A stretch of 64,000 nucleotides of DNA from Thalassobaculaceae bacterium. Its GTDB lineage: Bacteria > Pseudomonadota > Alphaproteobacteria > Thalassobaculales > Thalassobaculaceae. Where the stretch lies: positions 4,508,616-4,572,615 of the forward strand of contig OZ245843.1 of the NCBI GenBank assembly GCA_965228875.1. Reading direction: 5' to 3'. Under the pieces are notes generated by a model that was not told the DNA's origin, did no database searches, and saw nothing but the letters and a program-made list of their open reading frames with translations. Shown here piece after piece: positions 18,834 to 37,017 of this stretch. Numbering within the stretch: position 1 is the first letter of the stretch; each line of letters begins with the position of its first letter. The translations under genes were made by a program, and so were the position numbers.

Positions 18834-21281
18834 TCACATCAGCATCTTGATGACGTTGATCTCGAGGTCGAGCACCGCCTTGATCGAGATGTGGACCCCC
18901 ATGCTCATATCGAGACTGTCGGTCATCGACATGCCGAGCCGGGTCGCCATGGTCATGTCCATCGAGCTGCCGATATGCATGTTCATGTTGTCGCCGATGC
19001 CGATGGACATGCCGTCGCCCAGATGCATGCTCATCTGGTCTCCGAGATGCATGCTCATGGCGTCGCCCAGATGCATGCTCATCTGATCGCCGAGATGCAT
19101 GCTCATGGCGTCGCCCAGGTGCATGCTCATCTGGTCTCCCAGATGCATGTTCATCGCGTTGCCGAGATGCATGCTCTCCTGGTTGCCCAGGTGCATGCTG
19201 GCGGCGTCGCCTAGATGCATGCTCTCCGCCTCCCCGATATGCGCCGACAGGTTGTTGCCGATGTGGACGGAAGTCGACATCGCGATGCTGATCGAGGCGG
19301 CGACGCCGATATGCATCGACGCCTGGTTGCCGAGATGGACCGACGCGGCGTCACCGAGGTGGGCCGAGGCCGCGTCGCCGAGATGCATGCTCGTCGCGTT
19401 GCCGATATGGGTCGAGTCGGCGTTGCCGATGTGCAGGTTGGTCTGGTTGCCGTGATGGTGCGAGGTCGGGTTGCCGTAGGCGATCGAGAGGTTGTGCTCG
19501 CCGTAGCTGCGGTGGAAGTCGTAGCTGTTGCCGTAGATGATGGAAACGTTGGAGTAGGGGCCGCCGCCGACGGTCGACTTGGCCTCGGCCTCGGAGAAGA
19601 CCGTGTTCACCTCCGACGCGCGGTCGGACGTCGGGCCGATCTGGACGTGGACGTTGGCGCCGACCGAGGCGTTTTTCATCGGTCCGCAGTTGCGGTTGTC
19701 CATGGTTCCGTCGATCACGAACTGCATCGTTCCGACCTGATAGGACGAGGTGTCGCCGATCGTGGTGTGCGGGATGTCGACCGCCGGCGCGTTGATCGCC
19801 CCGTGGGACCAGATCATGCCGACGATCTCCGGCACCATCGAGAGGCCGGTCGCGGGGCCGACCAGCACCACGGCGCCGATCTCCGGCGCGGTCTGCATCC
19901 CGGCGCCAAGGCGCACCCAGTACGGCGTGCCCCGGTCCCAGGGAAACTCGACATAGACGCCGTAGGTCCAGATTTCGAACTCGCTGCTCTGGGTGGCGTC
20001 GTACTGCGGCGGCGGGATCAGCTCGACCGGTTCCATGCAGGCGCCGGGGTCCCACGGCGCCGGGCTGTCGCCGGGACCCCGGACCACGGTGGCGATCGAC
20101 GGGCCGAAGTAGATGGTGTCGAACGGATCCCGCACCGTGCCGAAGGGGTGGCTCGGCGGGTTGCCGGTGAAGCGCACGATGTGGACGCCGTCCTCGTCGG
20201 ACTCCACCGACATCTGGCTGATGACGAAGTCCTGCCCGTCCAGTTCCCTGCGCGGATGGTTGGTGACGGTGAAGACGTGGCCGGCGAGCATCCCGAAGGC
20301 GGTCGACGTGCCGGTCAGGCTCTCGGCGTCGAAGCGGACGGATTCCGCCGCCCGCCGGTTCGACATGTCGGCCCAGTCCGCACTGGTCTCGACGTCGTAG
20401 AGGAGCACCCGCTCGAAGCTGACGGTCTGGTTGTAGCGGTCGTTCTCGAGGATCGTCGCCTTGGCGCTGGGCGCGGTGGAGACCCGCTGTCCCATGGTCG
20501 ACATGATCGTCTTGCCGGTCTGGGGCGTCAGCTGCTGCTGATAGCTGTAGGCGAGGATCAGGTCGTCGCTCGGCCGCGTGTCGTCGAGCGAGAACAGCGC
20601 GCGCAGCTTCTGCGGCTGGTCGTCGGGGGCGTTCGGCGTGTAGCAGTCGGCATAGGCCTCGGCGTTGTCGGCCAGCACGAGGACATGCTCGCAGCCGGCG
20701 GTCTGCGGCGTCTGCTTGAAGAAATAGAAGATGCCGGTGCGCTGCATCAGCTGGGAGATGAAGGACAGGTCGGTTTCGCCGTTCTGCAGCCAGTCGTGCT
20801 TCTCGATGGTGGTCATCGGATTGCGGTAGCTGGTCTCGAAGGCGATGCCGTGACGGTCGAGCACGGCGGCGATGACGTCGGGCACCGTGACGTTGACATA
20901 GAGCTCGTACTTGTTGGCCAGGGCCAGACGCCACAGGGCCGGGCGCATGTCGACCTCGTAGGTCACCTCGCCGGTGGAGCGCAGGGCGGTGACGATGCCG
21001 TTGACATAGACGCGGGTCTCGCCGCCCGACAGGGTGTTCGGCGCCGCGCCGGACGCGTGTCGGGGGCCGACATAGGCGAAGGTCACCGGAGAGCCGACGA
21101 CGTCGGAGAAGTCGGCGTTGGCGTCGGCGCCGGCCAGCGACAGGGTGTAGAGGAACGGCGCGGAGATCTGCTCCTGGCCCTGCACGGAGATCAGACGGAA
21201 GGCGGTCGCATCGATCGAGCCCGGCCAATGCACGAGCACCAGGGGCGTGTTCGGCGGCGGCGGTGGGGGCAGGTCGCTCAT
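18834..21281 (-). CDS. vgrG: T6SS spike protein VgrG (divergent), with a His/Met-rich octapeptide C-terminal beta-helix
   Basis: GQEQISAPFLYTL, QNGETDLSFISQLMQRTGIFYFF, OB-fold VEFPWD..WVRL..PEIG; start MSDLPPPP overlaps the tssG stop. Confidence 0.9.
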   Translation of the reverse strand: MSDLPPPPPPNTPLVLVHWPGSIDATAFRLISVQGQEQISAPFLYTLSLAGADANADFSDVVGSPVTFAYVGPRHASGAAPNTLSGGETRVYVNGIVTALRSTGEVTYEVDMRPALWRLALANKYELYVNVTVPDVIAAVLDRHGIAFETSYRNPMTTIEKHDWLQNGETDLSFISQLMQRTGIFYFFKQTPQTAGCEHVLVLADNAEAYADCYTPNAPDDQPQKLRALFSLDDTRPSDDLILAYSYQQQLTPQTGKTIMSTMGQRVSTAPSAKATILENDRYNQTVSFERVLLYDVETSADWADMSNRRAAESVRFDAESLTGTSTAFGMLAGHVFTVTNHPRRELDGQDFVISQMSVESDEDGVHIVRFTGNPPSHPFGTVRDPFDTIYFGPSIATVVRGPGDSPAPWDPGACMEPVELIPPPQYDATQSSEFEIWTYGVYVEFPWDRGTPYWVRLGAGMQTAPEIGAVVLVGPATGLSMVPEIVGMIWSHGAINAPAVDIPHTTIGDTSSYQVGTMQFVIDGTMDNRNCGPMKNASVGANVHVQIGPTSDRASEVNTVFSEAEAKSTVGGGPYSNVSIIYGNSYDFHRSYGEHNLSIAYGNPTSHHHGNQTNLHIGNADSTHIGNATSMHLGDAASAHLGDAASVHLGNQASMHIGVAASISIAMSTSVHIGNNLSAHIGEAESMHLGDAASMHLGNQESMHLGNAMNMHLGDQMSMHLGDAMSMHLGDQMSMHLGDAMSMHLGDQMSMHLGDGMSIGIGDNMNMHIGSSMDMTMATRLGMSMTDSLDMSMGVHISIKAVLDLEINVIKMLM
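18960..19470 (-). repeat. Coding 24-bp tandem repeat (8-aa unit SMHLGD[AQ]M) in the vgrG 3' end
   Basis: + strand AGATGCATGCTCAT recurs with a 24-nt period; 18 H-[LI]-G units counted in the protein; boundaries approximate. Confidence 0.9.
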
Positions 21282-22321
21282 GGGGTCGCCGCCGCCGACG
21301 GCCCTCGGCTGTAGACGGCGATCCGCGCCTCCAGCGTCGGCCGGCCGGAGCGTCGGGCGCGCAGCCACGACCCGCGCCCCAGCACCGCCGTACCGATCGC
21401 CGCTGTCGACACGCCCTCGGCGACGACGCTCAGGTGCATGTCGACCACGACGGTCTCGTCGGCGACGAACTGGACCAGTTCGGCGAAGGCCCGGACCTGC
21501 GACTCGTCGCGGGCGATCCGGCGCAGGTGCCCGGCGGTGGCCGGCCCGACATCCAGGCGGACGGCGGAGGTGTGGTCCCGCGCCCGTCGGCCGATCGCTG
21601 CCCCGTGCCCGAGGATGCCGTTGCGGCCGTGGCGCCGGCCGATGGCGGTGCGGTCGCGCCGGTCGATGGGCAGCCAGCGCGGCGCCAGCGGTTTCAGGCG
21701 AACCGGCACGTCCCCGCCGAGCCAGCCGGCCACCGTGCGCTCGATCACCGCGGCGCTGCGCGGTGGCCCGGCGAGCATGCCGGCGAAAGGCAGCAGGACC
21801 TCGTCGGCGGCGCCGAGCCGCCCGGCCAGGCCGGGGCCGAGCAGGCCGAGCCAGGCCCGCAGCGCTACCAGATGCGGCAGATGGGTCGGCCGGTCGTCCC
21901 ACAATCCGGGCCGGTGGGTCTGGCGCAGTGCGTGAAACAGCTCGATCAGACGATGATTGAAGATATCCAGGAACGCTGCCGGCGCGGCGTTGCCCACCCG
22001 CTCCTGGTCGAGGACGAAATCGGTATAGGGTTCCGGCAGGGCGCCATGGTGGCCCGCCAGGCTGAGAGCGGCGACCCGCAGGGTCACGGTGTCGTCCTCT
22101 CCCGCCGGCAGCTCGATGCCGTCGACATCCGCCGGCACGAATCCGCGGCTGACGCGCGCGCCCAAGGCGAGGTCGCGGGCCCCGCCGAGCCGGTCCGCCA
22201 TGCGCGGATCGGCCAGCGCCCGGCGCAGCAGCCGGATCGCCTGGAACATGTCGAACCGCCGCGGCTCCGCCCGCAGCCAGTCGATCAGAGGCTCGCGCGA
22301 GCCCCAGCCAAAATCGGCCAT
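21278..22321 (-). CDS. tssG: T6SS baseplate TssG
   Basis: FDMFQAIRLL, LSLAGHHGALPEPYT, FLDIFNHRL; start MADFGWG. Confidence 0.9.
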   Translation of the reverse strand: MADFGWGSREPLIDWLRAEPRRFDMFQAIRLLRRALADPRMADRLGGARDLALGARVSRGFVPADVDGIELPAGEDDTVTLRVAALSLAGHHGALPEPYTDFVLDQERVGNAAPAAFLDIFNHRLIELFHALRQTHRPGLWDDRPTHLPHLVALRAWLGLLGPGLAGRLGAADEVLLPFAGMLAGPPRSAAVIERTVAGWLGGDVPVRLKPLAPRWLPIDRRDRTAIGRRHGRNGILGHGAAIGRRARDHTSAVRLDVGPATAGHLRRIARDESQVRAFAELVQFVADETVVVDMHLSVVAEGVSTAAIGTAVLGRGSWLRARRSGRPTLEARIAVYSRGPSAAATP

Positions 22322-24102
22322 CGGTGCCACTCGCCTTCCCGTCGCACGGAATAGAGGTTGGTCTGGGTGACGGTGTTCGCCGCCGCGTAGAGGGAGAAGA
22401 AATGCCGGAGTACGGCGCTGAACAGCACCGCGCTGGCGCCGACGAACTCGCTCTCGTCCAGGGTGAGGTCGATCGCCAGCCCGCGCGCGAAACCGGGCCA
22501 GACCGCGTCGTGCACCGGGGCGGCGAAGGGCCGGGTCGACAGATGCGCGATCGCGTTGATCTGTCGGGTGTCGACCCGGTCCCCCGCCTGGGCGTAGAGC
22601 CGCAGGATCCCCCGCAGCGCCCGCAGAGTCCGGGCGTCGTCGTCCGTCAGCGACAGGCGGTTCAGCGCCAGGTGCGAGACCAGTGGCCATAGCGCGCCGT
22701 CCTTGTCGCTGGGCCAGATCGGCATGGTCGGGCGCTGAAGCGCGACCAGCCGCTCGATCGGCTTGGTGCCGTCATAGGCCATCACCGCGTGGACCGGGAG
22801 CTGGCGGGGCAGGTCCCGGTTGGTGCACAGGGTCACCGCCTGGGCGAAGTCCTGGGGCGGCCGGTCGAGGCGGAACCGCCGGTCGTGGAACGACAGGAGC
22901 ACGTCGGTGCCCGGCACGCCGGGGCGGCCGCTGGTCACCCGGCGCGCCGTCCACAGGACCTGGGACGGATCCTCACCCACCGCGCGGTCCGGTCCGAAAT
23001 AGGGGGCGGTGCGCTGCGGCGCGGCCCCGGGACCGCTCGACACCGTGACGCTCTCGATGGCGTGGATCTCGGTGTGCCGCATGTCGCCGCCGTCGGGGAT
23101 GAGCGGATACTCGTAGGCGGTGTGGTCGAGGCGGATCGGATCGGTGGTGCGCCGGAACAGGTTGACCAGCGGGACGCAATGCAGCTTGAGGTCGTCGGTG
23201 GTCAGGGTCGGGACCTGCGGCGGCATCCGGTCAAAACCGATGACGATCTCCAGCGGCTCGCCTCCCGGCCGCCGCTCCAGTCCGTACAGGTCGAAGAACA
23301 GGAACTTGTCGGGAAACAGGAAGTACTCGTGCACCAGCCGGAAGGCCGGATGCACCCGCAGGTCGTCGGGCAGGAGGCATTCCCCGTCGCCGAAACCGAC
23401 CGGTCGCAGATCCCGGCGCGGGTCCAGCGGCACCCGGGTGCCGTCGCCGGCCACCAGCTCGATCCGGTTGACCCGGCAGGACAGGTACTCGTACAGGGCC
23501 GCCCGGTTCCGCCAGTCGCCGCCGAGGAACACGCGCAGCCGGCTCAGGTCGAGCATGCTCAACGGTTTCGCGCCCCGCTTCGACAGCCGCAGCCGCAGCA
23601 GGGTCGGCGAATCGTCCCAATGCCGCGCCATCGGCGTCGTTCCGGTCTCGCACCACTCGACCGTGTCGAGGCCGACCGGGTTCAGCACCACCGGCGCTGT
23701 CGTGCGGAAACGGACCGTATCGCCGTCCGCCGTTTCCGCGATCACCGGCGCACCGCGGTCCAGGGCGATGCCACCGGTCATGGCGGCGTCGAACATGTCC
23801 GGCTGGATCTCGGCGACGGTGAAGCTCGGGATCGGTCGGGTGAGCTGCGGGTAGAGAATTTCGAGCAGGCCGAGCGGGATCTCGTGCGCGGCGTTGTCGA
23901 GATTCATCTGCAGCCGGCCGGTCAGCATGGCGAAGGCCTGCAGCATCAGCTCGACCTGCGGGTCGTTGCTGCGGCCCGCCGCGAGCTCCAGGCGGTCGGC
24001 CACGTTGGGGAAGCGCCCGCCGAACCGTGCGGCCGCGGTTCGCAGGTAGCCCAGTTCCCGCTCGAAATAATCGAGCAGCCGCTCGTCGTCGCCGACGATC
24101 AT
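22285..24102 (-). CDS. tssF: T6SS baseplate TssF
   Basis: LLDYFERELGYLR, DPQVELMLQAFAML, EYFLFPDKFLF, CVPLVNLF, CTNRDLP, FFSLYAAANT. Confidence 0.95.
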   Translation of the reverse strand: MIVGDDERLLDYFERELGYLRTAAARFGGRFPNVADRLELAAGRSNDPQVELMLQAFAMLTGRLQMNLDNAAHEIPLGLLEILYPQLTRPIPSFTVAEIQPDMFDAAMTGGIALDRGAPVIAETADGDTVRFRTTAPVVLNPVGLDTVEWCETGTTPMARHWDDSPTLLRLRLSKRGAKPLSMLDLSRLRVFLGGDWRNRAALYEYLSCRVNRIELVAGDGTRVPLDPRRDLRPVGFGDGECLLPDDLRVHPAFRLVHEYFLFPDKFLFFDLYGLERRPGGEPLEIVIGFDRMPPQVPTLTTDDLKLHCVPLVNLFRRTTDPIRLDHTAYEYPLIPDGGDMRHTEIHAIESVTVSSGPGAAPQRTAPYFGPDRAVGEDPSQVLWTARRVTSGRPGVPGTDVLLSFHDRRFRLDRPPQDFAQAVTLCTNRDLPRQLPVHAVMAYDGTKPIERLVALQRPTMPIWPSDKDGALWPLVSHLALNRLSLTDDDARTLRALRGILRLYAQAGDRVDTRQINAIAHLSTRPFAAPVHDAVWPGFARGLAIDLTLDESEFVGASAVLFSAVLRHFFSLYAAANTVTQTNLYSVRREGEWHRWPILAGARASL

Positions 24103-24124
24103 GCGTCACTCCCGGTCGTCGCCA

Positions 24125-24598
24125 TCACCGTCTCCGCGGTCCGCCGCGCCGGTCGACGGCCACCGCCACCTCGAATCGCGCCGGACGGACATGGTGCTCC
24201 ATCCGGACGCCGCCCGATACCGTCAGACGGAGGATCGAGGGGTCGTCGCGATCCATTTCCGCGTCAACCCGGGGCGAGAGAATGCGTGGCTCGAACGCCG
24301 CGACCGTGCGGGTCGCCGCATCGACGATCTCGGGTGCGACCTTGCCCCGGTCCATCGGATCGCCGCGCAGCTGCGGCATGCCGTAATTGGCCAGCGTCCG
24401 ATCGACGGAGGCCGCCTGTCTGCAGGTGACCGGGCTGCGCGTGCCAAACACCCGCTCGAGATTCAGCATGATGCTCGAGACCAGGGAATCCAGGTCCAGA
24501 ACCCGGCCATGGGTCGGCGCGGCGTCGCGATCCGCGACGTCGCCGAGACGGTCCAGCACCGGAACCCGGGCGGGGTAGACTTCCTGCCGCGCCGGCAT
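24125..24598 (-). CDS. tssE: T6SS baseplate TssE (gp25-like)
   Basis: PVLDRL, NLERVFGTR, NYGMP, AFEPRI; lies between hcp and tssF. Confidence 0.85.
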   Translation of the reverse strand: MPARQEVYPARVPVLDRLGDVADRDAAPTHGRVLDLDSLVSSIMLNLERVFGTRSPVTCRQAASVDRTLANYGMPQLRGDPMDRGKVAPEIVDAATRTVAAFEPRILSPRVDAEMDRDDPSILRLTVSGGVRMEHHVRPARFEVAVAVDRRGGPRRR

Positions 24599-24658: not shown

Positions 24659-25168
24659 CTAGGCGGCGTTCTTGTTGGTCGCCAGGTTCCATTCGAAGGC
24701 GGTCTGAGCGGTGTTGGTCGCGGTGTCGATGGTCTGCGTGTAGTAGGTCCAGCTGATGGCCGAGAAGTTGATGGTGAAGGTCTCGGTCGGCATGTCGCCG
24801 GGGTTGGCCTGCATGCTCATCGAGGAGATCAGCGGGTTGGTGAGCTGGATCTCCATGATCTTCTGCAGCTGGAAGCCGTCGAGCGCGCCGCCGTTGCGGG
24901 CCAGCACGATCTTGGTGGTGCCGATGCTGCTGCCCTGCAGGCAGGCCTGGTAGAGCTTCGTCGAGCTGGCGTCCATGTATTTGACGCACGCCAGGTCCTG
25001 AATGTTCGGCTTGCCGGAGGTGCGGGCCGTATTGCTGACATCCGTGGTGATCTGCATCGAGAAGCCCTGGCTGAGCGACAGCAGCTGGACCCACTCGCTG
25101 TAGCCGTCGATCTGCGACTCGCCCTTGATGGTTTTTCCGCCGTCGGCCTGCAAAAGAATGACGTCCAC
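24659..25168 (-). CDS. hcp: T6SS tube protein Hcp
   Basis: IKGES.IDGY.EW, DLACVKYMDASSTKLYQAC..G, PTETFTINFSAISWTY, WNLATNK. Confidence 0.95.
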   Translation of the reverse strand: MDVILLQADGGKTIKGESQIDGYSEWVQLLSLSQGFSMQITTDVSNTARTSGKPNIQDLACVKYMDASSTKLYQACLQGSSIGTTKIVLARNGGALDGFQLQKIMEIQLTNPLISSMSMQANPGDMPTETFTINFSAISWTYYTQTIDTATNTAQTAFEWNLATNKNAA

Positions 25169-25210: not shown

Positions 25211-27592
25211 TCAGGCGCCGGCGGGCGGCATCTTGACCACGAGGCGAATGGAAACGGCGATCTCCTCGAGCTGGAAATGCGGCCGGATGTAGACGGTGGA
25301 GGTGTACACGCCGGGCGACCCTTCGACCGGATAGACGTCGACCCTGGCTTCGCGCAGCGGTCGAGCGGCCTTGAGGGTCTGGGACGCGGTGTCGTCCTCC
25401 AGCACGTAGTTGGAGATCCAGCGCGACAGGTAGGCCCGGATGTTGTCCTCCGTCATGGCCGAACCGATCTTCTTGCGCAGCATCTCCTTGATGTAATGGG
25501 CGAACCGCGAGGCCACGAGCATGTAGGGCAGGCTGGCGGAGAGCTTTGCGTTGCCGGTGGCGTTGGGGTTGTCGTAGGCGACCGGCTCGTTGATCGTCTG
25601 CCCGCCGAAGAACACGGCGTCGCGCTTGTTCTTCTCGTGACACAGGGCGATGAACCCGAGATCGGACAGTTCCTTCTCCCGCCGATCGGTCAGCGCGATC
25701 TCGGTCGGGCATTTGATCGCGATGTCGCCGTCGCCGGTCTTGAAGTTGTACAGGGGCAGGTTCTCGACCATGCCGCCGGCCTCGACGCCGCGGAACGACG
25801 CCGGCCAGTAGTACAGCGCGAAGGCGTTGGTGATCCGCTCGGCCAGAGCGAACGCGGCGTTGCCCCACAGGAACTTGGCGTTGTCCGGCCCGGCCTCGCC
25901 GGCGACCTCCTCGTTGAAGTCGAAGCCGTCGGCCGGGTTGTTCTCCGGGTCGTAGGGCGCGCGGAGCAGGAAACGCGGCAGCGTCAGGGAGACGTAGCGC
26001 GAATCTTCGGCGTTGCGGAAATCGGAGAACGCGACGATGCCCGCCTCCAGACTCTCGAAGATCGAGGCGAGTTCGCGCGGCTTGGCGAGATCGGTGAAGG
26101 ACTCCAGGTCGAACAGATCAGGCGCCGCCCCGGACAGCATCGGCGCATGGGCCATCGAGGCGATGTGGGCGAGGTATTCCAGCATGTTCTGGTCCGGCAT
26201 CGAGCGGCCGAAGTAGTGGTCCAGCACCAGCATGCTGAACGGATGTCCGCCGTAGGTGCCGAACTCGCTCTCATAGACCTTCTTGAAGAGCTCGCTCTGC
26301 TCCCAGTCGAACATGCCGCCCTTTTCCATGTCCTTGCGCAGGTCGTCGAGCGTGACGTCCAGCACCTTTATCTTCAGGTACAGGCCGGTCGGGGTGAGAG
26401 ACACCAGATGCCAGAGCTGGCGCCAGCGCGACTCCACCTCCTGGAACTCCGGACTGTGCAGGATGAGGTTGAGCTGCTCGTTCAACTTCTTGTCGAGGGT
26501 CGCGAGCTCGGAGACCATGCGCTGGGCCGCGCCGTGCTCGGAATGGGTCTGGGCGGCAAGGTCCGGATCGACCACCCGTTCCAGATAGGTTTTCAGCATC
26601 TCGATCGCCCGACCCTCCTGGTCCGGCGTGCGTGCGAGGCCGGCGGCGAACAGCTTTTCCAGGATCGTGCGATCCTCCGGCTTCTTCTGCCGGGCCCCCG
26701 GTTCGGCGGCGGCCGGCGTCAGCTCCCAGTCCGCGGCCTCGCGACGGGCGGTCGCCCTGGTGAGTGCCGCGGCGGTCTGTTCGGCGGCGACCCGGGCGGG
26801 ATAGCTGTCGTCGCCGCCCTCGACCGCGGCCTGGGCGGCATCCGCCTTCTCCTTGGCGGCGGCTTCGGCCGCGGCGGCCTTGGCCTGGTTGTCCTTGAGC
26901 AGGGCGTCCAGCTTCGCCTGGGCGGCATCGAGATCGGCCTGCAGCTTGTCCTTGGCGTCGCCGTCTGGGGTTTCGGCGATCATGCCGGTCAGCGAATGGA
27001 TCTGGGCCCGCAGGCCCGTCACCGCCGCCGAACGGTGGGCCAGGCCGTTGACGCGGGCCTCCGCCGCTTCGAAGGTGGCACGCAGGGTGCCCGCCGGATC
27101 CTTGTCCTCGTCGGCGTCGGCGTTCGGATCGGGGTGGCAGAGCTTGCCGAGGAAACTCGCGACCTCCTCGCGCCCGTCGATCTTGGTCAGCAGGTTGCGC
27201 ATGTCGGTGCGGGCCCGGAACTCGCCGGCGAGATCGGGGATGTTGCGCAGCACCTGTGCCGGTGTCAGATCGTCGAGCTTCTCGATCGTCAGGTCGACCG
27301 CCATGCGGCTGCCGTCGTCCTTGATGCGATCGGGGACCGCCACGGACACGGTCGGCGCGAACCGCATCATGACGTCGTTGAAGTTGTCTTTGCTGATCTC
27401 GACGAAACTGCGCTGGGCGAGCGGTGCGCGTCCCTCCGTCTTGCCGGAGAAGTCGCCCATCACCCCGACGATGAAGGGCAGCATCTCCATCGCGATTGCG
27501 CCTTCGGTTTCAACGTCGTAGGTGATGTGAACCCGGGGCCCCGCCGGCCCGACCGGACCCCCGTCAAGCTCGTGCTGGAAGTTCTTCTTCAT
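25211..27592 (-). CDS. tssBC: Fused T6SS sheath protein TssB-linker-TssC (VipA-VipB)
   Basis: N-terminal PRVHITYDVET..LPFIVGVMGDFSG (TssB) and C-terminal ILHSPEFQEVESRW, VYESEFGTYGGHPF, LWGNAAF, KCPTEIALTDRREKELS, SRFAHYIK, RPHFQLEE (TssC) in one uninterrupted frame. Confidence 0.92.
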   Translation of the reverse strand: MKKNFQHELDGGPVGPAGPRVHITYDVETEGAIAMEMLPFIVGVMGDFSGKTEGRAPLAQRSFVEISKDNFNDVMMRFAPTVSVAVPDRIKDDGSRMAVDLTIEKLDDLTPAQVLRNIPDLAGEFRARTDMRNLLTKIDGREEVASFLGKLCHPDPNADADEDKDPAGTLRATFEAAEARVNGLAHRSAAVTGLRAQIHSLTGMIAETPDGDAKDKLQADLDAAQAKLDALLKDNQAKAAAAEAAAKEKADAAQAAVEGGDDSYPARVAAEQTAAALTRATARREAADWELTPAAAEPGARQKKPEDRTILEKLFAAGLARTPDQEGRAIEMLKTYLERVVDPDLAAQTHSEHGAAQRMVSELATLDKKLNEQLNLILHSPEFQEVESRWRQLWHLVSLTPTGLYLKIKVLDVTLDDLRKDMEKGGMFDWEQSELFKKVYESEFGTYGGHPFSMLVLDHYFGRSMPDQNMLEYLAHIASMAHAPMLSGAAPDLFDLESFTDLAKPRELASIFESLEAGIVAFSDFRNAEDSRYVSLTLPRFLLRAPYDPENNPADGFDFNEEVAGEAGPDNAKFLWGNAAFALAERITNAFALYYWPASFRGVEAGGMVENLPLYNFKTGDGDIAIKCPTEIALTDRREKELSDLGFIALCHEKNKRDAVFFGGQTINEPVAYDNPNATGNAKLSASLPYMLVASRFAHYIKEMLRKKIGSAMTEDNIRAYLSRWISNYVLEDDTASQTLKAARPLREARVDVYPVEGSPGVYTSTVYIRPHFQLEEIAVSIRLVVKMPPAGA

Positions 27593-27599
27593 CCCATCC

Positions 27600-27830
27600 C
27601 CCGTCGCTCGGCGCCGATCTTTGATTGGAGTTCGGATCGCCTTCTTCAAGCGTCGAAATCCTCGCAATCGCAAGCTGCTAGCTTATGATTGCAGATAACT
27701 CACAAAACATTACGGCTTGGGTGATACTTCGTCAATTTGGAAGAATCGCGAGTGGCGAGAATAGATTAACGCATACAATGAATCAGTGTGAATCTCTGCA
27801 CGTCGATCCGGGTCGCGCCCATAGGGACGG
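27600..27830 (-). promoter_or_regulatory. AT-rich intergenic region, probable promoter for the tssBC-hcp-baseplate-vgrG operon
   Basis: Marked drop in GC relative to flanking genes; no clear consensus identified. Confidence 0.45.
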
Positions 27831-29033
27831 TCAGGGCTGACGGTCGGAGTTCCGGTTGGCGTAGTCGAGCAGGTCGAGGACCTTGAGGCCGCCGGCGTCG
27901 TAGCGCATCAACTCGCGGTACAGCTCGTTGAACGGCGTCCGGCCCCAGGTGATCGCCCGTTTGACCAGATGGGGCACGGGACTGTGCGGCTCGGTCTTGA
28001 GCAGGAAGTCCGCGGCCTCCTCGAGGCGGCGGTAGGCATCTTCGCGGGTCAGGATGTGGGCACGGACCGCGGACTCGGTGCTGCGGATCGAACCGGCATC
28101 GCCGCCGCCGGCGGGTGGCGCACCCGCCGATCCCGCGCCCACCACCCCCGCGCCCGCCGCGTCCGAGGCATCGCCGTCCACCGTGTCCCCGGTGCCGTCA
28201 TCCCCGGCATCGGACATGAACACGATACCGCCGCGGTCGCGGTACAGGCCGTCGACGAAGCTGAAGATGCGGTGCGCGGTTGTGCGCAGCGGTTCGTGAA
28301 GCCGGGGCTCGCGGTCTCCCCATCGGGTGCGTCGCCAGTCCCAGAGGTTGTCGACCTCCTGCATCGCCAGCTCGGCGTCGCCGCGGGTGCGGCCGAGCAC
28401 GTCCAGCGGCGTGTCGGCGACATTCTCCAGGTAGAGGTCGATCGGGCCGGCCTCGTTCGACCCGCCCCCACGCTCGCGGCGGGCGGCGATGATCTCGCTC
28501 AGACGCTCGGCATTGCGCCAGTCGGACCAGGTCAACGGCGGACGGTCCCCGTGTTCGGGGCGCGTCAGCGGCACTAGGCTCATCGCCGGCACGATGAAGT
28601 GATCGATCCAGCGCTGCGGCGCGATCCGGGGCTCCACGTCGTCGTCGCGGATCCGCGGATGCACCGTGTCCCAAAACTCCGTGGCGATCATCCGGAACAG
28701 GGCGGACCCGGCGGCGGTGCCACGGAAGCCGTGCAGGTGCGTCAGCGACTCCAGGAGCCAGGCGCTGACCTGCAGGTCCTTCGTACGCTCGCTCAGCAGC
28801 TCCAGGCACAGGGCCTTCACCCGCGGCCAGTTGGCGCGGCGCGGCGAGGTCGCGGAATCGCCGCCGGACTCGCTCTCCACCATCCGCGCCTTGCGGATCT
28901 CGCGGAACGCCAGGTCGTAGAACAGGGATTCGCCGGACGGCTCGTCCTCCTGGATCGGCCGCAGCAGGTCGGCCACGGGGAGACCGAGTTCCGGGGCGAT
29001 CGTGTCCAGGCCTGCGCTCTCGACCATGCTCAT
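27831..29033 (-). CDS. tssA: T6SS TssA (short ImpA_N type)
   Basis: LLRPI..PSGE.L.YD, RTKDLQVSAWLLE, FWDTVHP; C-terminal REDAYRRLEEAADFL..EPHSPVP. Confidence 0.92.
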   Translation of the reverse strand: MSMVESAGLDTIAPELGLPVADLLRPIQEDEPSGESLFYDLAFREIRKARMVESESGGDSATSPRRANWPRVKALCLELLSERTKDLQVSAWLLESLTHLHGFRGTAAGSALFRMIATEFWDTVHPRIRDDDVEPRIAPQRWIDHFIVPAMSLVPLTRPEHGDRPPLTWSDWRNAERLSEIIAARRERGGGSNEAGPIDLYLENVADTPLDVLGRTRGDAELAMQEVDNLWDWRRTRWGDREPRLHEPLRTTAHRIFSFVDGLYRDRGGIVFMSDAGDDGTGDTVDGDASDAAGAGVVGAGSAGAPPAGGGDAGSIRSTESAVRAHILTREDAYRRLEEAADFLLKTEPHSPVPHLVKRAITWGRTPFNELYRELMRYDAGGLKVLDLLDYANRNSDRQP

Positions 29034-29061
29034 CGTCGGCAATCCTCGCTGCGCGCCACCT

Positions 29062-32000
29062 CTATCCTCCCGTCGTCGCCGTGGGTTGCGACGGCAGGGC
29101 GGGCGCCGATACCGGGAAGTTCGGCAGGACCATCGGCACTTCCTTGCCGGTCGCGTCCCGGCCCGTCAATCCCAGAGCGATGTAGAGCTGCGCCGTCTGC
29201 GACCGGGTCGTCGTGTTGCCGGCGGCGTCGGCCGAACTCCGGTTGGTCGCCACCTTGAAGGCCAACGTGTTGGGATCCCGGCCTTTCGGCGCCAGCGCGA
29301 AGGCGCTTGCCGGGGCCTGGTTGGCCAGCATCAGCCGCAGCAGCGACCAAGGGTCGCCCGCGGGCACGGGCGCGAAGGTCACCGAGCGGTCGGACCAGCT
29401 GTAGCCGTTACCGCTCGCCGGCGCGACGGGCCCGTTCTTGGGCCACCGGAAGCCAACCGAGACCGGCGTGCCGAGGGCCCAGGCGAGGTTGCTCACGGCG
29501 ATCGGGTAGACCGCGCTCTCGCTGCCGGCGGTGACGGTCCATTCCAGTACCTGATCGGCCCCGGCGGCGCCGGCGAGGTCGAGGCGGAAGCTCGGGGCGA
29601 CCGTGACCGCCGGGACCGGTCCATTGGCGACCTGCGGCACCAGCGCACCAAGCAGATCCAGCGATGCCTTCAACCGGTCGAGGAAACCGGCGGCATCTGC
29701 CGTGCGCGCGCCGGTCTTCGCCAGGAATGCCAGTTCCTTGCGGGCTTCCGGCAACACGGAGGCGAGCTGGCTGGTCGCGGCACGCACGGTCTCCGGCGGG
29801 ATCGGCGGGGGCGGCCGGCGCGCCGACGGCGGCGCGTTGGGCGAGGCCGCGGGTGCAAACGGGAAATAGGGACTGAGGTCGTTCTCGAAGAGGGAGACGA
29901 TCTTGTCGTAGTTGCCCTCGACCTGTCCCTCGTCAAGCTCGGCACAGCGCCGGTCGATGTCGTCCAGCAGGGTGGCGAACTCCTGGGAGAACAGGTCGGT
30001 CACCGGCGGCGGTGTCACCTTGGCAAGGTCGTCGAGACAGCTCTCGCCGGTCATCGCCAGCAGCGGCGAGGCGAAGAAGCTCTCCAGCTCGCCGAGGGTG
30101 TTGCCTCTCTTCACGCCGTTCTCGTACTCGGTCAGCGTGACCAGCGTGGCGTTCCAGCGGGTCAGTGTCGCCTGCTCTCCCGGCGACAGGGCGCTGGCGC
30201 CGTTGCGCAGGTAGGCGACGGCGGGCTGGGCGTAGCTCCGGGCGACGGTCGAGACCCGGCCACGGGCCGCGGCGAGGTAGTTCGCCAGCGCCGAGGCGTT
30301 TCCGACGCGGTAGGCGAAGGTCGTCGCCGTCTCGCCGCCGTCCCAGAGACTCCACGGCACCTCCGGGTCGTACTGGGTGCCGGCGGCGCGATGGTACACC
30401 CGGTCGGCGGCGTCCAGGATCGCGGCGGCGTTCTCGCGGTTGGCGGCGGCGAAATCGCCGGCGGTCGAAACGTTCTGGAATTTCAGCAGGACTCCCTGGA
30501 CCTCCTGGATCGGGACAAGGGCGCCCTGCAGGCTGACCGCGGCCGCGCCGAGCGCCGCCTCCTCGGCCGCGGCGTCGCCGGGAGCCACCGGCCGGGTGAT
30601 CGTCTGCGCCGTCGCGAGCCGGGCGTCCATCGCATCGACCAGCCCGCGCCCCGCCATCGCCGTCAGCGCGGAGCGGAGTTCCGGGGTCAGGTCGCCGCCG
30701 CCGTCATTCAGGGAGGCGACGAAGGCGTCGTAGTCGCCGTAGAGGTCGAGAACCGCCTGCAGACCCTCGGCCTCCCAGTTCATGAAGGTCCCGTCGGCGA
30801 GAACCGTCCGGATCGCCAGCCCGGACGCGGGCCGGAAGAAATCGGCGGCGGTCAGGGAGGCGAGCTGGGTGCGGAAGGCGGCGACCGGCGGGCTGAGTAC
30901 CGGGGGCTCGCCGTCATCGTTGCCGGCCAGGAGCGGGACGGGCGCGGGCGCGACCGGATACCGGAAGGGGGAGATCGCGCCGGCGACCGCCGTGGCGCGG
31001 CCGTCGAGCGCGGTTGCGAGGGCGTCGGCGGCACCTTCGCCAAGGATAAGCGACTTGCGGACCTGCGGCAGGAGCGCCGCCAGCGCCAGTTCGTCGGCGG
31101 TCGCGGAACCCGAGCCGGCGAGGGTCTCGGCCAGGCTGTCGAGATCGGCCGAGAGCCGTCGGGCGGTTCCGGAAACCACCTGCGCCGGATCGGCACGGGC
31201 GGTCATCACCCGTGCCAGCGTCCGATTGACCTTCTCGAGCTGGGCAACCACCGCGAAGCCGGTGCCCGGCGGGCGGGCGAGGGCCGGTGCGGCGGCGACG
31301 ATCTTCGGGCCGAGGCGGCCGGCGACTCCGGCGAGGTCGAAACGCACACCTTCCGCCGCTACGCCGACCGCGGCGGCGATCCGTCGGGCCGTCGCCGGCG
31401 ACATCAGCGGCAGCTTGACCCGATAGGTCCGGTGCAGCAGGCCCTGGATCGCCAGCGGATCGACGGTCAGCGTTTCGAGCCGGGCGGCGCGGATCGTCTG
31501 CACGTCCTGCTCGACGGCGAGGGCGTCGGCGATCCAGGCGGTCATGGCGGCGACCGCGTTGTCCCCGGACAAGCCGGTCGGAGTCTGCAGCAGCGCGCCC
31601 GAGCGGCGGAAGGCGTCCGAGACGATCTGCGGGCCGACGCTGTGGGCGAGCCGATCGCTCACCGCTGGATTGAGCACCCCGTCGAGGCCGAACAGCAGGC
31701 TGACCGGGTTGAACACGCTCGTCGAGGGGATCCGGTCCAGTTCTGTCAGCGCGGCCGTCATCCGGGTCGCCTGGACCGCCCGCTCGCTCGCCGTGCCCGA
31801 CGGGGCGGCGAGAGCGGCGTCCAGTTCGCGGATCGTCGACGTCATGGCGGCGGTCGACCGGTCGAGATCCCGCCAGCCCAGGAGCGCCGCGGCCAGGGTG
31901 GCGACGGCGAGACCGGCGAAGATCGCCGCCGACCGGTTGCGGCGAAGGCGCTGCCGCGCGACCACGCGACGACTGGGCGCGGCGATGCCGACCTCGTCAG

Positions 32001-33108
32001 CGATGCGGCCGTCGAACAGGTCGGCCAGCAGGATCGGGCGGGAAGCGTCGTCGACGCTGGCACGCGGCACCCGGCTGTCGGGCCGGGCCGAACCGCTCGC
32101 ATAGATGCCGCGCAGCCAAGGCACGTCGCGGGCGGCACTCTCCTGGAACACCGGCGTGAGAACCCGCCGCAGCGGCGCGGCGAGGGCACGGGTCACGGCC
32201 CCGAGGGCCAGCACCGCTTCGCGTCGGTCTGGCACGCCGTCGTCGCGGGCCAGGAGCAGTGTCGGCTGCGCGGACTCGAAGGCCGCCGCGATGCGGTTCA
32301 CGGCATCGTCGATCTGCGCGCCGTCGTAGGTGGCGTCCAGCGACTGTGCGTTCGACCAGCCGACCGTCTGTCCCCGCCTCGCGCCGACGACGTGATGGAC
32401 CAGCGCGTCGAAACCCGGAACGGCGTCGTAGCCTGCGACCACGACGTAGACCGGCAGTCGCCGGCCGGCGCGCTCCTGAAGTCGGGCGATGCGCCGCGCC
32501 GCGCCCTCGCCAAGAGCGGCGAGTCCGCCGTCCTCAAGCGCTTCGGGGCCGGTCAGTCGACTGGCGGCGACGCTCAGCACCACGGCATCGACCGGCCGGG
32601 TCGGGCGCCAGTCCAGCAGCAGGCTGATCAAACCGTCCCACTCCTCCTCGGGCGATCCGGCCTCGCCGGCGGCCGCCACCAGGGGGATATCGGTCGTATC
32701 CAGCAGGGCGATCCGGCGGAGCACCTGCCAGCGCCGGTCGCCGCCCGTGTCGGCGGCCGGGTCGCGGGGCAGCTCGGCACGCACGAGATCGAGATTCCCG
32801 CCGCCGGCGGCGTCCCCGATCACCAGCGCGACCGCCCGGCTGGAGGCGACCGCGGGCGGCGGGCTGGAGGCGCGTCGGCGGTCGCGCCCGCGCCACCAGC
32901 CACGGGGCAGCAGTCGCGTGGGTCCGAGTCCGACGAACCGGCGGATCAGCAGCCAGACGACCCTGGCGATCAGGATCAGGACGACGGCGGCGACCGCGCC
33001 GACGACGGCGAGGACAATCGGATCGCCGAGCCATCCCGAGAGACTGCGCCAGGGATCGTCCCAGTCGATCAGCGCCAGGGACTGCAGGAGGTTGGTGAGG
33101 GGCTGCAT
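29062..33108 (-). CDS. tssM: T6SS membrane complex TssM/IcmF-like protein (divergent)
   Basis: WRPTRPVDAVVL, RLPVYVVV..D.VPGF, TVGWS, WLRGIYASG, DLF; TM followed by a long helical region and a C-terminal beta domain (GDPWSLLRL). Confidence 0.85.
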   Translation of the reverse strand: MQPLTNLLQSLALIDWDDPWRSLSGWLGDPIVLAVVGAVAAVVLILIARVVWLLIRRFVGLGPTRLLPRGWWRGRDRRRASSPPPAVASSRAVALVIGDAAGGGNLDLVRAELPRDPAADTGGDRRWQVLRRIALLDTTDIPLVAAAGEAGSPEEEWDGLISLLLDWRPTRPVDAVVLSVAASRLTGPEALEDGGLAALGEGAARRIARLQERAGRRLPVYVVVAGYDAVPGFDALVHHVVGARRGQTVGWSNAQSLDATYDGAQIDDAVNRIAAAFESAQPTLLLARDDGVPDRREAVLALGAVTRALAAPLRRVLTPVFQESAARDVPWLRGIYASGSARPDSRVPRASVDDASRPILLADLFDGRIADEVGIAAPSRRVVARQRLRRNRSAAIFAGLAVATLAAALLGWRDLDRSTAAMTSTIRELDAALAAPSGTASERAVQATRMTAALTELDRIPSTSVFNPVSLLFGLDGVLNPAVSDRLAHSVGPQIVSDAFRRSGALLQTPTGLSGDNAVAAMTAWIADALAVEQDVQTIRAARLETLTVDPLAIQGLLHRTYRVKLPLMSPATARRIAAAVGVAAEGVRFDLAGVAGRLGPKIVAAAPALARPPGTGFAVVAQLEKVNRTLARVMTARADPAQVVSGTARRLSADLDSLAETLAGSGSATADELALAALLPQVRKSLILGEGAADALATALDGRATAVAGAISPFRYPVAPAPVPLLAGNDDGEPPVLSPPVAAFRTQLASLTAADFFRPASGLAIRTVLADGTFMNWEAEGLQAVLDLYGDYDAFVASLNDGGGDLTPELRSALTAMAGRGLVDAMDARLATAQTITRPVAPGDAAAEEAALGAAAVSLQGALVPIQEVQGVLLKFQNVSTAGDFAAANRENAAAILDAADRVYHRAAGTQYDPEVPWSLWDGGETATTFAYRVGNASALANYLAAARGRVSTVARSYAQPAVAYLRNGASALSPGEQATLTRWNATLVTLTEYENGVKRGNTLGELESFFASPLLAMTGESCLDDLAKVTPPPVTDLFSQEFATLLDDIDRRCAELDEGQVEGNYDKIVSLFENDLSPYFPFAPAASPNAPPSARRPPPPIPPETVRAATSQLASVLPEARKELAFLAKTGARTADAAGFLDRLKASLDLLGALVPQVANGPVPAVTVAPSFRLDLAGAAGADQVLEWTVTAGSESAVYPIAVSNLAWALGTPVSVGFRWPKNGPVAPASGNGYSWSDRSVTFAPVPAGDPWSLLRLMLANQAPASAFALAPKGRDPNTLAFKVATNRSSADAAGNTTTRSQTAQLYIALGLTGRDATGKEVPMVLPNFPVSAPALPSQPTATTGG

Positions 33109-33109
33109 C

Positions 33110-34015
33110 TCAGGTGTCCAGGCGCGTGGGGCCGTCGGCCGGCGCGGTTACCGACAGAGATGCGACCGACAGGCCGGCGCCCAGGTCCGAGCGGACGGAC
33201 GCGAGGATCAGGGCCGAGGCGATCAGGAATGCGACGAGGACGGCCCAGGCGCCACGCACCCAGGGGCGCGCGGATGCCGGGGCGGATGTGGGCGAACCGG
33301 CGACGACATGGCCATAGGCGGCGGGTGTCAGTCGGGAGTCCGTCGCGTCGCCGCCGCCGTGGGCGACGGCGATGAAGGTGCGCAGGCGGTCGACCACCCG
33401 GCCGAACGCATCGGGGAAGAACCGAAGCCGGCCGCGAAAGCCGAGGGCCAGGACCGTGAGGTAGACCATGGCGAGGTCGCCGTTGGCTCGGGTGCGCGGC
33501 GCGCTGTCGAGGGCGGCGATCATGTCGAGCAGGCGGTCGCCGGCGGCCCGAGACCCGAACAGGCGCGCCTCCAGCAGATGCCCGAGCCAACCGCCGCCGC
33601 CGACCTCGAACTCGAGGATGTCGTCGGCAAGCGCCGCCATGGCGTAGTAGGCGTCGCGCCGCCAGGTCGCCGAGGCGGGTGTCACGCCCGCTCGCTCCAT
33701 GCGCGCCGACAGGTCCGCTGCAAGCTGGTCGGCGACATTGCTCAGCCGTTCGGCCGACGCACCGGTCGGTCGGTCCGCGCCACCGGAGCCGGACAGGGCG
33801 ACGGCGGCGATCGCATCCGCGTCCGACATTCGGGCCAGATCACCGCCGGACGAGAGCAGGTCGCGGGCCACGAGCACCCGGGCGCCGAACGCCCGCAGGT
33901 CGGCCAACAGGTCTCCTTCACTTGAGCGGTCCCCGTCCACCCGTGCATTCCTCTCCGTCGTGCCAAGACTATGTGCCTGACTATGCACTCTATTGTTGAT
34001 CGAAGTATCGGGCAA
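33110..34015 (-). CDS. tssL: T6SS TssL/DotU (no OmpA domain); start uncertain
   Basis: YAMAALADDIL, W..HLLEARLFGSRAAGD, VYLTVLALGFRGR, C-terminal TM. Confidence 0.88.
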   Translation of the reverse strand: MPDTSINNRVHSQAHSLGTTERNARVDGDRSSEGDLLADLRAFGARVLVARDLLSSGGDLARMSDADAIAAVALSGSGGADRPTGASAERLSNVADQLAADLSARMERAGVTPASATWRRDAYYAMAALADDILEFEVGGGGWLGHLLEARLFGSRAAGDRLLDMIAALDSAPRTRANGDLAMVYLTVLALGFRGRLRFFPDAFGRVVDRLRTFIAVAHGGGDATDSRLTPAAYGHVVAGSPTSAPASARPWVRGAWAVLVAFLIASALILASVRSDLGAGLSVASLSVTAPADGPTRLDT

Positions 34016-34022: not shown

Positions 34023-34661
34023 CTATTTTGTCGTTTGTACGGTTATTGCCTTGGATTTTTTCGCTTCAGGGGCGAGCGGGACTGCGATCAGGGGGTGATC
34101 GTAGCGGCCCGCGAGGGCATTGGCCGCAGCCTCGGCGTCGCCGCCCGTCGCATAGTCGCCGACGGTGACCATTGACCAGACCCGTCCCCCGGAGCCGGTG
34201 GCCTTGCGGACCATTGCCGCCAGACCGTCCGCCGACAGCCGTCGGGCAAGGGTGTCCGCCGGGGCCTCGTGCAGAAAGAGGTCGACGCGGACCGTCCAGC
34301 GCCAGCCGTCGGTCCCGGCCTGTGAGTCGGCCTGTGCGCCTGGAACGGGCGGGACGGCCGGCACGGGAATCGGCGGCGTGGCATCGGTGATCAGGGGAGG
34401 CGGAGGCGGTGGGCCGGATGCCTTCCCCTTGGCGTCGGCCGGCGCCATTCCCGCGGTTTCGGCGGTGTTGCTCCCGCTCCGCGCGGGCGCGGTCGCCGAG
34501 CCTGTCGCCCCGTCCGTCACCGGGGCCTGGGTCGGTGCCGGAGCGATCTGAGCGGTCACCGCCGCCCCCGCCAGGGCGCCGACGAACAGGACGGCAACCT
34601 TCTGCAGTCCCTTGCGTTTCAGAAGCGGTTGCTTGGGCACGACCGGCGGACTGATCTTCAT
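34023..34661 (-). CDS. Membrane-anchored SPOR-domain protein
   Basis: N-terminal TM, Pro/Ala linker, WTVRVDLF...WSMVTVGDYATGGDAEAAANAL SPOR-like pattern. Confidence 0.65.
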   Translation of the reverse strand: MKISPPVVPKQPLLKRKGLQKVAVLFVGALAGAAVTAQIAPAPTQAPVTDGATGSATAPARSGSNTAETAGMAPADAKGKASGPPPPPPLITDATPPIPVPAVPPVPGAQADSQAGTDGWRWTVRVDLFLHEAPADTLARRLSADGLAAMVRKATGSGGRVWSMVTVGDYATGGDAEAAANALAGRYDHPLIAVPLAPEAKKSKAITVQTTK

Positions 34662-36498: not shown

Positions 36499-36965
36499 CC
36501 GGACCGCTGGCCACGCGACGTGTGGTTCTGGCCGCATTCGCCACTGTCCCGGTCGCCGGCTGTTCGCTGGTCGACGACCTGCTGCCGAACAACAGCCTCG
36601 ACAGCATCGCCCTGACGATCGCGCCGAAGGTGAACGACGACACGCCGCTCGCCGTCGACTTCGTCTATGTCGCCGACGCCCAACTCGTGACCGCGCTGAC
36701 CGCGCTGACGGCGGTCCAGTGGTGGCAGCAGCGTGCCGATCTTGCGCTCGCCAATCCCACCACCCTGACGGTCGAGAGTTATGAAGTCTCGCCGGGGCAG
36801 GTACCGCCGGTTGTGACCCTGCCGGAAAGCGCCGGCGACGCGGTCGCGATCTTCGTCTTTGCGGTCTATCAGACGCCCGGCGCCCATCGCGCCCGTCTGG
36901 AGAACTACTCCGACGCGGTTGTGGCGCTCGGAACCAAGTCCTTCACCGTCAGTGGATCCACGTGA
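36495..36965 (+). CDS. tssJ: TssJ-like T6SS lipoprotein
   Basis: MTGPLATRRVVLAAFATVPVAG-C lipobox; VNDDTPLAVDFVYV, YEVSPGQ, FVFAVYQTPG.HR; directly upstream of tssK. Confidence 0.75.
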   Translation: MTGPLATRRVVLAAFATVPVAGCSLVDDLLPNNSLDSIALTIAPKVNDDTPLAVDFVYVADAQLVTALTALTAVQWWQQRADLALANPTTLTVESYEVSPGQVPPVVTLPESAGDAVAIFVFAVYQTPGAHRARLENYSDAVVALGTKSFTVSGST

Positions 36966-37017
36966 TGCTTCGCCTTCCTTCCGCCGCCGCCATGACCCGA
37001 CGCGAAAGGCCGCACGC

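Follow-up and report, generated by a model that had tools for sequence, protein, structure and literature searches.

The window analysed here, a stretch of 64,000 nucleotides from the genome of a Thalassobaculaceae bacterium (contig OZ245843.1), carries a type VI secretion system (T6SS) cluster in which the two sheath proteins TssB and TssC are encoded by a single gene, tssBC, with a long insert between them. The usual textbook T6SS sheath is a polymer that requires two proteins, and its surface domain is seen as the recognition site of ClpV. We consider it fairly probable that tssBC encodes a single-chain, ClpV-independent sheath protomer with an enlarged surface domain (domain 3), and the gene appears to belong, as a form with a long insert, to a class of single-chain sheaths from clusters without clpV that is widespread but has hardly been described.

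The terminal TGA is the only stop in the 793-residue minus-strand translation of 25211-27592, and the start ATG at 27592 is in line with the N-termini of 17 fused homologues. Pfam placed T6SS_VipA (PF05591) at residues 19-151 (E 6.2e-39), VipB at 363-667 (E 4.2e-108) and VipB_2 at 678-787 (E 9.7e-39), so that both VipB and the gpW/gp25-like domain are present in the TssC part (PF05943 and PF18945). Both NCBIfam models scored over their cut-offs: TssB (TIGR03358) reached 129.7 bits against 97.25, residues 19-151 matching profile positions 10-143 of 160 with the last ~17 positions unmatched, and TssC (TIGR03355) reached 549.9 bits against 271.5, residues 326-789 matching positions 17-473 of 473. 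The gene is thus a genuine single-chain TssB-TssC with both domains complete in one intact frame, as an earlier note on this DNA had described it: one frame of ~793 amino acids (aa) with a full TssB, a linker and a full TssC. A stand-alone TssB has ~160-190 aa and a free C-terminus; here the frame runs on into the insert and TssC. Neither is the TssC N-terminal helix free, the homologous segment being internal with 306 residues ahead of it. The parts of the open reading frame (ORF) and its upstream spacer are as follows; the boundaries given earlier for TssB (27140-27592) and for the insert (about 26675-27139) hold.

25211..27592, minus strand: tssBC, 793-aa ORF with its stop codon at 25211-25213, probable single-chain T6SS sheath protomer.
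27140..27592, minus strand: TssB part, residues 1-151, by the TIGR03358 match, the alignment to 9n4v_B and the AlphaFold2 (AF2) model.
26675..27139, minus strand: insert or linker, residues 152-306, rich in Ala, Asp, Glu and Lys, without a Pfam family.
25214..26674, minus strand: TssC part, residues 307-793, with N-terminal helices H310-319 and H323-341 and a gpW/gp25-like C-terminal domain.
27593..27830, minus strand: intergenic spacer between tssA and tssBC, 238 bp, of lower GC.

The 155 residues of the insert include 45 Ala, 16 Asp, 12 Glu, 11 Leu and 10 Lys, and a peptide quoted from the linker in the earlier note was found at about residues 214-250. The GC content at third codon positions (GC3) is 0.89 in the insert, equal to that of the TssB part (0.89) and close to that of TssC (0.91), which agrees with the linker being genuine GC3-rich coding sequence. 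It was also rightly called longer than a plain tssB-tssC join, since about 141 residues lie beyond an end-to-end join of the two profiles. Searches for an origin of the insert were negative within their scope. A phmmer search with residues 151-330 against the 150 best homologues recovered only the protein itself, a Pfam scan found no family in the insert, and a word-indexed homologue search with residues 1-330 returned only the same protein among 8000 scored candidates, where the low-complexity insert probably drew unrelated candidates. The tandem-repeat search of the insert DNA gave two trivial short arrays only, leaving growth by repeat expansion unsupported, and in the composition profile a foreign-DNA signature was not clear at the locus. 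A scan of 25100-27900 for sigma-70-like promoter and terminator consensus found no site of either kind.

Such a gene could also be obtained without biology if an error in sequencing or assembly, through loss of a stop or an unnoticed frameshift, had merged separate tssB and tssC, which are adjacent in the same order in canonical clusters. Long open frames arise by chance in high-GC genomes, and this locus offers an example: a 1195-aa open frame at 24101-27688 on the plus strand, opposite tssBC and hcp, fails the codon-position GC filter and is best read, on its composition, as a high-GC artefact and no gene. The sequencing runs listed for the region 26300-27700 number 20, belong to 12 studies and are for the most part metagenomes of aquatic and marine samples; contigs of four runs (X6, X8, X12 and X15) from four studies were compared with 25100-27800. 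In X6, which may be the run that the window sequence came from, one contig is identical across the whole stretch; in X8 one contig covers it with 8 substitutions and 0 gaps, thus spanning the gene; X12 and X15 cover it piecewise and differ by substitutions alone. None of the four runs has a listed insertion or deletion across 25100-27800. Among 35 variant sites, 29 are synonymous, 6 non-synonymous and none a stop, the non-synonymous codons being 147, outside the insert, and 153, 159, 163, 294 and 295, within it. The absence of indels and stop variants indicates that the frame is intact in natural populations; replacements falling only in or at the edge of the insert indicate purifying selection on the TssB and TssC domains, with the insert held more loosely.

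The one-frame architecture also recurs widely. When 1.84 billion representatives of 50%-identity clusters were searched exhaustively with HMMER, 7715 matched at E up to 0.001, and TssB and TssC stood in one chain in 120 of the 150 best representatives, a proportion which is not a frequency among all TssC because the ranking favours two-domain proteins. All 70 fused proteins scanned matched both TIGR03355 and TIGR03358, and ESM Atlas clusters with VipA plus VipB have 73, 169, 91 and 281 members. In the best 80 reference loci, taken from one-genome-per-species contigs, 19 sheath genes were fused, 60 split and 1 cut by a contig end. The fused loci span Alpha-, Beta- and Gammaproteobacteria, with hosts among the Woeseiaceae, Dyella monticola, Holosporaceae and other alphaproteobacterial metagenome-assembled genomes (MAGs), Caedibacter, Arenicella, Psychrosphaera, Algicola, Thalassomonas, three Lysobacteraceae MAGs, a Thiotrichales MAG, Aliagarivorans marinus and Trinickia soli. 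With this recurrence, the coding-like GC3 of the insert and the indel-free contigs of four studies, an artefact is extremely unlikely. The same counts overturn the earlier view of the fusion as rare, and a related fusion, TssCL, has been published (see below). Close to home, none of 40 relatives of this genome, 10 of them of the same genus, carries a fusion or cluster of the window type. In a genome of the same class and another family, a full TssB match (G039:C126:1482-1952) lies within a 647-aa open frame that may be another fused sheath.

What sets the window protein apart is the length of its insert. Using profile coordinates we determined the number of residues beyond an end-to-end join in 68 fused proteins, 2 of the 70 having been left out, as the best TssC stretch in each came after an earlier one. 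The median was -2 and the quartiles -20 and 28; 36 proteins had 0 or fewer extra residues, 21 had 1-50, 5 had 51-99 and 6 had 100 or more. Fusions are thus mostly plain end-to-end joins and a long helical insert is a minority feature. The earlier argument that simple stop-codon loss was unlikely mixed two events: most fusions are plain joins, and the long insert is an addition found in a minority. Pfam found no family in the long inserts of P0005, P0007, P0010, P0011 and P0015. Some fused TssBC proteins among the metagenomic representatives carry large N-terminal additions, namely a WD40 propeller (P0054), ImpA_N plus TIR (P0063), an FGE-sulfatase domain (P0070) or protein kinase plus VIT plus VWA (P0117), and in P0072, of 2151 aa, TPR, a kinase and part of a TssK accompany a pair of TssBC units; these five multi-domain proteins may be real sheath proteins or gene-calling read-throughs.

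We modelled the window protein with AF2 (model m9ab20efe3994) from an 81-sequence alignment of fused homologues, obtaining a mean predicted local distance difference test score (pLDDT) of 89.7 and a predicted template modelling score (pTM) of 0.84. Helices H119-138 and H142-152 form the TssB share of domain 3, and between the two domains the model places three long helices and a low-confidence stretch:

26975..27088, minus strand: predicted linker helix 1, residues 169-206 (AF2).
26819..26959, minus strand: predicted linker helix 2, residues 212-258 (AF2), holding the peptide quoted earlier.
26732..26803, minus strand: predicted linker helix 3, residues 264-287 (AF2).
26666..26731, minus strand: low-confidence stretch, probably disordered, residues 288-309 (pLDDT <50 for 290-303), leading into the N-terminal helices of TssC.

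The top Foldseek matches of the model are solved T6SS sheaths, led by 5n8n_B (E 8.5e-37, TM by target 0.84, 43% identity) and followed, at probability 1.00, by 9n4v_A (53% identity), 5urx, 3j9g (VipB) and 5mxn, with the TssB chain 5n8n_A next. By phmmer against PDB sequences, residues 307-792 correspond to residues 16-491 of Azotobacter vinelandii TssC (9n4v_A, 535.7 bits) and residues 3-149 to residues 3-146 of the 187-aa TssB chain 9n4v_B; thus the TssC N-terminal region is retained, and the end of TssB has either diverged or given way to other sequence. The available parts of the structural literature describe domain 3 as built from the VipA/TssB C-terminal and VipB/TssC N-terminal helices, located on the surface and targeted by ClpV (PMC4632598; PMC5807055; PMC10433429); it is T6SS-specific and serves ClpV recycling (PMC4632598), and R-pyocin sheaths lack it and are not recycled (PMC5807055). 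This matches what the earlier note had said of the outer domain as ClpV target. As the TssB C-terminus and the TssC N-terminus both belong to domain 3, published structures would place the join inside that domain, on the outside of the sheath, and the proposed surface position of the linker fares well on the same structural grounds.

Families and fold are common to the window protein and the canonical two-chain TssB/TssC of T6SS-i (VipA/VipB; 9n4v from A. vinelandii, 5n8n TssB1C1 of the P. aeruginosa H1 system), as is the operon position between tssA and hcp. Unlike them, it is one polypeptide with ~141 extra residues in domain 3 and a TssC N-terminus that is not free, and no clpV lies in its cluster. 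Contractile phage, R-pyocin and extracellular contractile injection system (eCIS) sheaths (T4 gp18, PVC/AFP) also have one chain per protomer, and the consulted sections of PMC5807055 describe them as carrying extra surface domains on a conserved two-domain core, without ClpV recycling. Nevertheless, their similarity to the window protein is one of remote fold only (Foldseek E 3e-5 to 8e-3, TM by query 0.2-0.26, typically ~0.25), and no phage-sheath Pfam family was matched in the tssBC product. By sequence the protein is a fused T6SS-i TssB plus TssC, so that the single chain would be secondary and not inherited from phage-type sheaths.

Independence from ClpV is argued for by the distribution of clpV. 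Counting as a Clp-like ATPase any ORF with E <1e-50 to the ClpV of this genome within 10 kb of the sheath gene, at loci of at least 18 kb, we found one at 0 of 12 fused loci versus 34 of 43 split loci. At the level of genomes, a ClpV over the cut-off was present in 3 of 19 with a fused sheath versus 42 of 60 with a split one; the three positive fused-sheath genomes also carry a split TssB, and none of the 15 genomes in which a fused frame is the sole TssB has a ClpV, which indicates that the class works without ClpV. In the window, no AAA+ or Clp protein was found among the 23 ORFs scanned. A link between the window fusion and ClpV is therefore plausible, given a cluster without clpV and fused loci without a Clp-like ATPase. 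The more specific suggestion of the earlier note, that the linker may mask or replace the ClpV site, is not supported: the homologue of the TssC N-terminus, from about residue 16 on, is kept immediately behind the insert, and the nearest relatives with a split sheath are ClpV-less too.

A FastTree phylogeny of TssC domains (222 rows) places the window in an 18-row clade with local support 98, comprising 16 fused, 0 split and 2 unfused or partial sequences. At least 5 changes between the fused and split states are needed on this tree, and 4 on a tree of 79 loci. Kinship with fused clusters is also supported by gene order, loci L020 and L025 sharing with the window the series tssBC-hcp-tssE-tssF-tssG-vgrG-DUF2169/pentapeptide.

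Several points weigh against a ClpV-independent sheath of this kind, or against parts of it. None of the listed sequencing runs is recorded as RNA. The linker helices are modelled with moderate confidence only (block pLDDT about 60-89), and a quick IQ-TREE analysis (82 rows) gave the window a long branch (1.36) with split sequences of Pseudomonas as neighbours, a placement that is probably unreliable. Of the split-sheath genomes, 18 are also without ClpV, mostly in clades that hold fusions too. The phylogenetically independent contrasts between fused and split states number only 3, so co-evolution of the fused state with ClpV loss is unproven, and as the nearest split relative is itself ClpV-less in most pairings, ClpV loss may simply mark wider clades. 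Many of the surveyed genomes are MAGs, in which the absence of a gene is weak evidence. Fusions are found only in ClpV-less clusters, and joint evolution with ClpV loss is not implied by these data.

The question of a substitute adds to these points. The available text on the T6SS-ii of Francisella describes an IglA/IglB sheath without ClpV that is disassembled by ClpB (PMC5481754; PMC10433429), which is a likeness to the window system and a precedent for recycling by a general Hsp100 protein in a T6SS without dedicated ClpV; yet that sheath is two-chain and far more distant (3j9o_B, 29% identity), so a role of ClpB here would be an analogy only. A full-length ClpB-like match (at least 800 bits, below the ClpV cut-off) was found in 10 of 16 ClpV-less fused genomes and not in the other 6, all MAGs, which speaks against ClpB as the substitute. 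In three Holosporaceae-like MAGs of 0.9-1.0 Mb whose sole sheath gene is fused (G043, G044 and G046; loci L027, L029 and L045) there was no ClpV or ClpB-like match, the best E being about 1e-5 to 1e-6; if these MAGs are complete, ClpB cannot be the recycler there.

The last point against independence is that the same genome does hold a ClpV. The only one over the cut-off (1183.8 bits) lies at 1930290-1932956, ~2.58 Mb from the window, in the canonical cluster of the genome, and it could recycle the fused sheath in trans through the TssC N-terminal helix segment, which is kept (alignment from ~residue 16 of A. vinelandii TssC) and preceded by the low-confidence stretch 288-309, the insert serving as a flexible leash. 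We regard this as improbable: all 15 fused-only genomes do without ClpV, and the canonical cluster here is H1-T6SS-like, a type in which, as far as the cited passages of PMC5807055 and PMC4632598 go, the ClpV-sheath contact differs from direct binding of the VipB helix.

The sheath gene stands in a cluster at 14267-38385 that, as judged by its gene content, is of T6SS-i type, with TssA, B, C, D, E, F, G, I, K, L and M together. TssA, TssE, TssF, TssG and TssK score over their NCBIfam cut-offs, while Hcp, VgrG, TssL and TssM are recognised but fall under theirs. The minus-strand order is SPOR, tssL, tssM, tssA, tssBC, hcp, tssE, tssF, tssG, vgrG, DUF2169/pentapeptide, pentapeptide and PAAR-like, and tssBC is the sole sheath gene, with no split tssB or tssC in the cluster. 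Besides tssBC, its genes are:

14267..14668, minus strand: PAAR-like protein (Pfam Tox-PAAR-like).
15219..16238, minus strand: pentapeptide-repeat protein.
16235..18823, minus strand: DUF2169 plus pentapeptide-repeat protein, following vgrG as its counterparts do in fused loci L020 and L025.
18834..21902, minus strand: vgrG (tssI), ORF as listed, under cut-off.
21278..22690, minus strand: tssG, ORF as listed, over the NCBIfam cut-off.
22285..24102, minus strand: tssF, over the NCBIfam cut-off.
24125..24598, minus strand: tssE, over the NCBIfam cut-off.
24659..25168, minus strand: hcp (tssD), family match under cut-off.
27831..29042, minus strand: tssA, ImpA_N, TIGR03363 222.2 bits (cut-off 160.85).
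29062..33108, minus strand: divergent tssM, 1348 aa, IcmF-related N-terminal domain only, TIGR03348 78.4 bits, under cut-off.
33110..34015, minus strand: tssL (DotU), under the NCBIfam cut-off.
34023..34661, minus strand: SPOR-domain protein adjoining tssL, with a peptidoglycan-binding domain.
34777-36498, plus strand: TPR protein with a weak heptosyltransferase-like (Glyco_transf_9) C-terminus; a counterpart lies in the canonical cluster of the genome (L017:4311-6212).
36859..38385, plus strand: tssK, TIGR03353 167.6 bits (cut-off 100).

The real start of tssG is probably near 22267-22290, because the family match begins at residue 142, and that of vgrG probably near the tssG stop, because the Phage_GPD match begins at residue 243. 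No T6SS-SciN match, and thus no TssJ, was found in the window, where small ORFs without assignment remain (e.g. 38529-38987). The partially recognised TssM, the lack of a recognisable TssJ and the SPOR protein beside tssL suggest, on gene content, a non-canonical membrane complex; TssJ is also reported to be missing from the T6SS1 clusters of roseobacters (PMC9515649).

These features could be taken as signs of a relic, a decaying or silent cluster in which fusion and insert are tolerated because the sheath no longer works: there is neither clpV nor a recognisable tssJ, four components score under their cut-offs, and the cluster was found in none of the 40 related genomes, including the 10 of the same genus. 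Set against this are the strain variants, 29 of 35 being synonymous and the 6 others avoiding the conserved TssB and TssC cores, the core genes present, all of them uninterrupted, the conservation of the fused-sheath gene order in distant taxa, and the 15 genomes in which a fused gene is the only sheath. Decay is thus quite improbable, even more so than recycling in trans.

Two further observations concern gene order. A DUF2169/pentapeptide protein, usually followed by a second pentapeptide protein, lies 3' of vgrG in the window (15219-18823), in the canonical cluster of the same genome (L017:7001-11339) and in distant fused clusters (L020:18242-21912 and L025:17867-20455), and it may be a conserved spike-associated module. 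In four gammaproteobacterial clusters a sigma-54-dependent activator gene is directly upstream of the fused sheath gene (L020:7866-9272, L025:7298-8329, L055:8260-9360 and L067:8179-9237); the window differs from these in having tssA upstream of tssBC, with the 238-bp spacer of lower GC between them.

The genome, of 4.96 Mb in one closed contig, has three T6SS clusters. The canonical one, at 1.92-1.95 Mb, is of the Fha/PpkA/TagF type and resembles H1-T6SS; it encodes a split TssB (165 aa) and TssC (495 aa), ClpV, TssJ, Fha, TagF and a PpkA-like kinase. Between its tssA and FHA gene lies a divergent protein of 593 aa (1940208-1941989; L018:6209-7990) that matches VipA and VipB weakly, lacks VipB_2 and is ~20-23% identical to the tssBC product; long frames like it adjoin canonical TssB in the relatives G004 and G012. 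The third cluster contains a second full TssB-TssC fusion, of 643 aa with a short linker (4436230-4438161; L016:2231-4162), ~72 kb before the window start and 36% identical to the window protein. This cluster is also ClpV-less and has hcp, tssE, tssF, tssG, tssK, a 345-aa TssM-like fragment and a 469-aa TssL-like protein, with vgrG, DUF4123 and a caspase-domain (Peptidase_C14) protein upstream.

The 593-aa paralogue recalls a published protein. In the accessible portion of PMC9515649 (Front Microbiol 2022), TssCL is described from roseobacter T6SS1 clusters as a long protein with VipA and VipB domains standing beside normal tssB and tssC; it is given there as 1,684 aa long, with two VipA domains, a single listed VipB domain and low identity to the true sheath genes. 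The authors present it there as a new class, found in Alphaproteobacteria only, in a cluster with tssA-H. TssCL is like tssBC in being a natural protein with both VipA and VipB; unlike this accessory protein, as that portion of the paper portrays it, tssBC is the sole and complete sheath gene of its cluster, and its class also occurs in Beta- and Gammaproteobacteria. On the same portion, the description of TssCL fits the 593-aa paralogue and not the window gene. One could still suppose that the window protein acts as TssCL might, co-assembling with or regulating the split TssB/TssC of another cluster and forming no sheath alone, the more so as such a fusion is on record in roseobacters (again from the accessible text) and a TssCL-like protein lies beside the canonical tssB and tssC of this very genome. 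This is very improbable, as the window protein has all three sheath domains with NCBIfam models over their cut-offs, shares only the low identity given above with that paralogue, and belongs to a cluster that encodes Hcp, baseplate, spike and membrane components of its own and lacks a split tssB or tssC. Subscription-only journals being outside the reach of our literature search, PMC9515649 was the only report of a natural TssB-TssC fusion found, and within the same reach there was no report of a fused TssBC as sole sheath or of its tie to ClpV-less clusters.

A mechanism for the single-chain, ClpV-independent protomer can be sketched as follows. The insert, with its three predicted helices and disordered stretch, would enlarge domain 3 on the sheath exterior, as published structures suggest, and would leave the tube-facing handshake core (domains 1 and 2) untouched, the protomer polymerising and contracting as a normal TssB/TssC pair would. 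If ClpV acts on the TssC N-terminal helix, then after the loss of ClpV-dependent recycling there would be no selection against joining the genes, nor against extra sequence hung at the join. Contracted sheaths may be cleared by a general unfoldase (as in Francisella with ClpB), by proteolysis or by dilution. Most likely the long insert simply decorates the surface, being specific to its lineage and under loose constraint.

A bolder reading, which we put forward as tentative and think rather unlikely, would make fused TssBC the mark of T6SS lineages without dedicated ClpV recycling, the split being kept for ClpV, and would see the insert as a functional surface coat. The TssB/TssC split would be maintained since ClpV could engage and thread TssC only by a free N-terminus, and re-fusion would have followed ClpV loss again and again (the trees call for at least 4-5 changes of state). 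Freed in this way, domain 3 would become an evolvable platform for helical inserts or, in some metagenomic relatives, N-terminal domains such as WD40, TIR and kinase/VWA, and the three-helix insert would space, bundle or anchor sheaths or dock partners, and not be filler.

Because fused proteins are annotated simply as 'TssC', T6SS surveys requiring separate tssB and clpV under-count such systems. The window gene is a good test object, being complete and under purifying selection, in a closed genome that also holds a canonical ClpV-type cluster and a short-linker fusion; its insert is among the longest and sits at the exact site used for fluorescent sheath tagging. One-chain sheaths confined to ClpV-less clusters amount to a natural experiment on why the sheath gene is split, and on whether sheaths that have contracted are cleared in the absence of ClpV and, if so, by what means.

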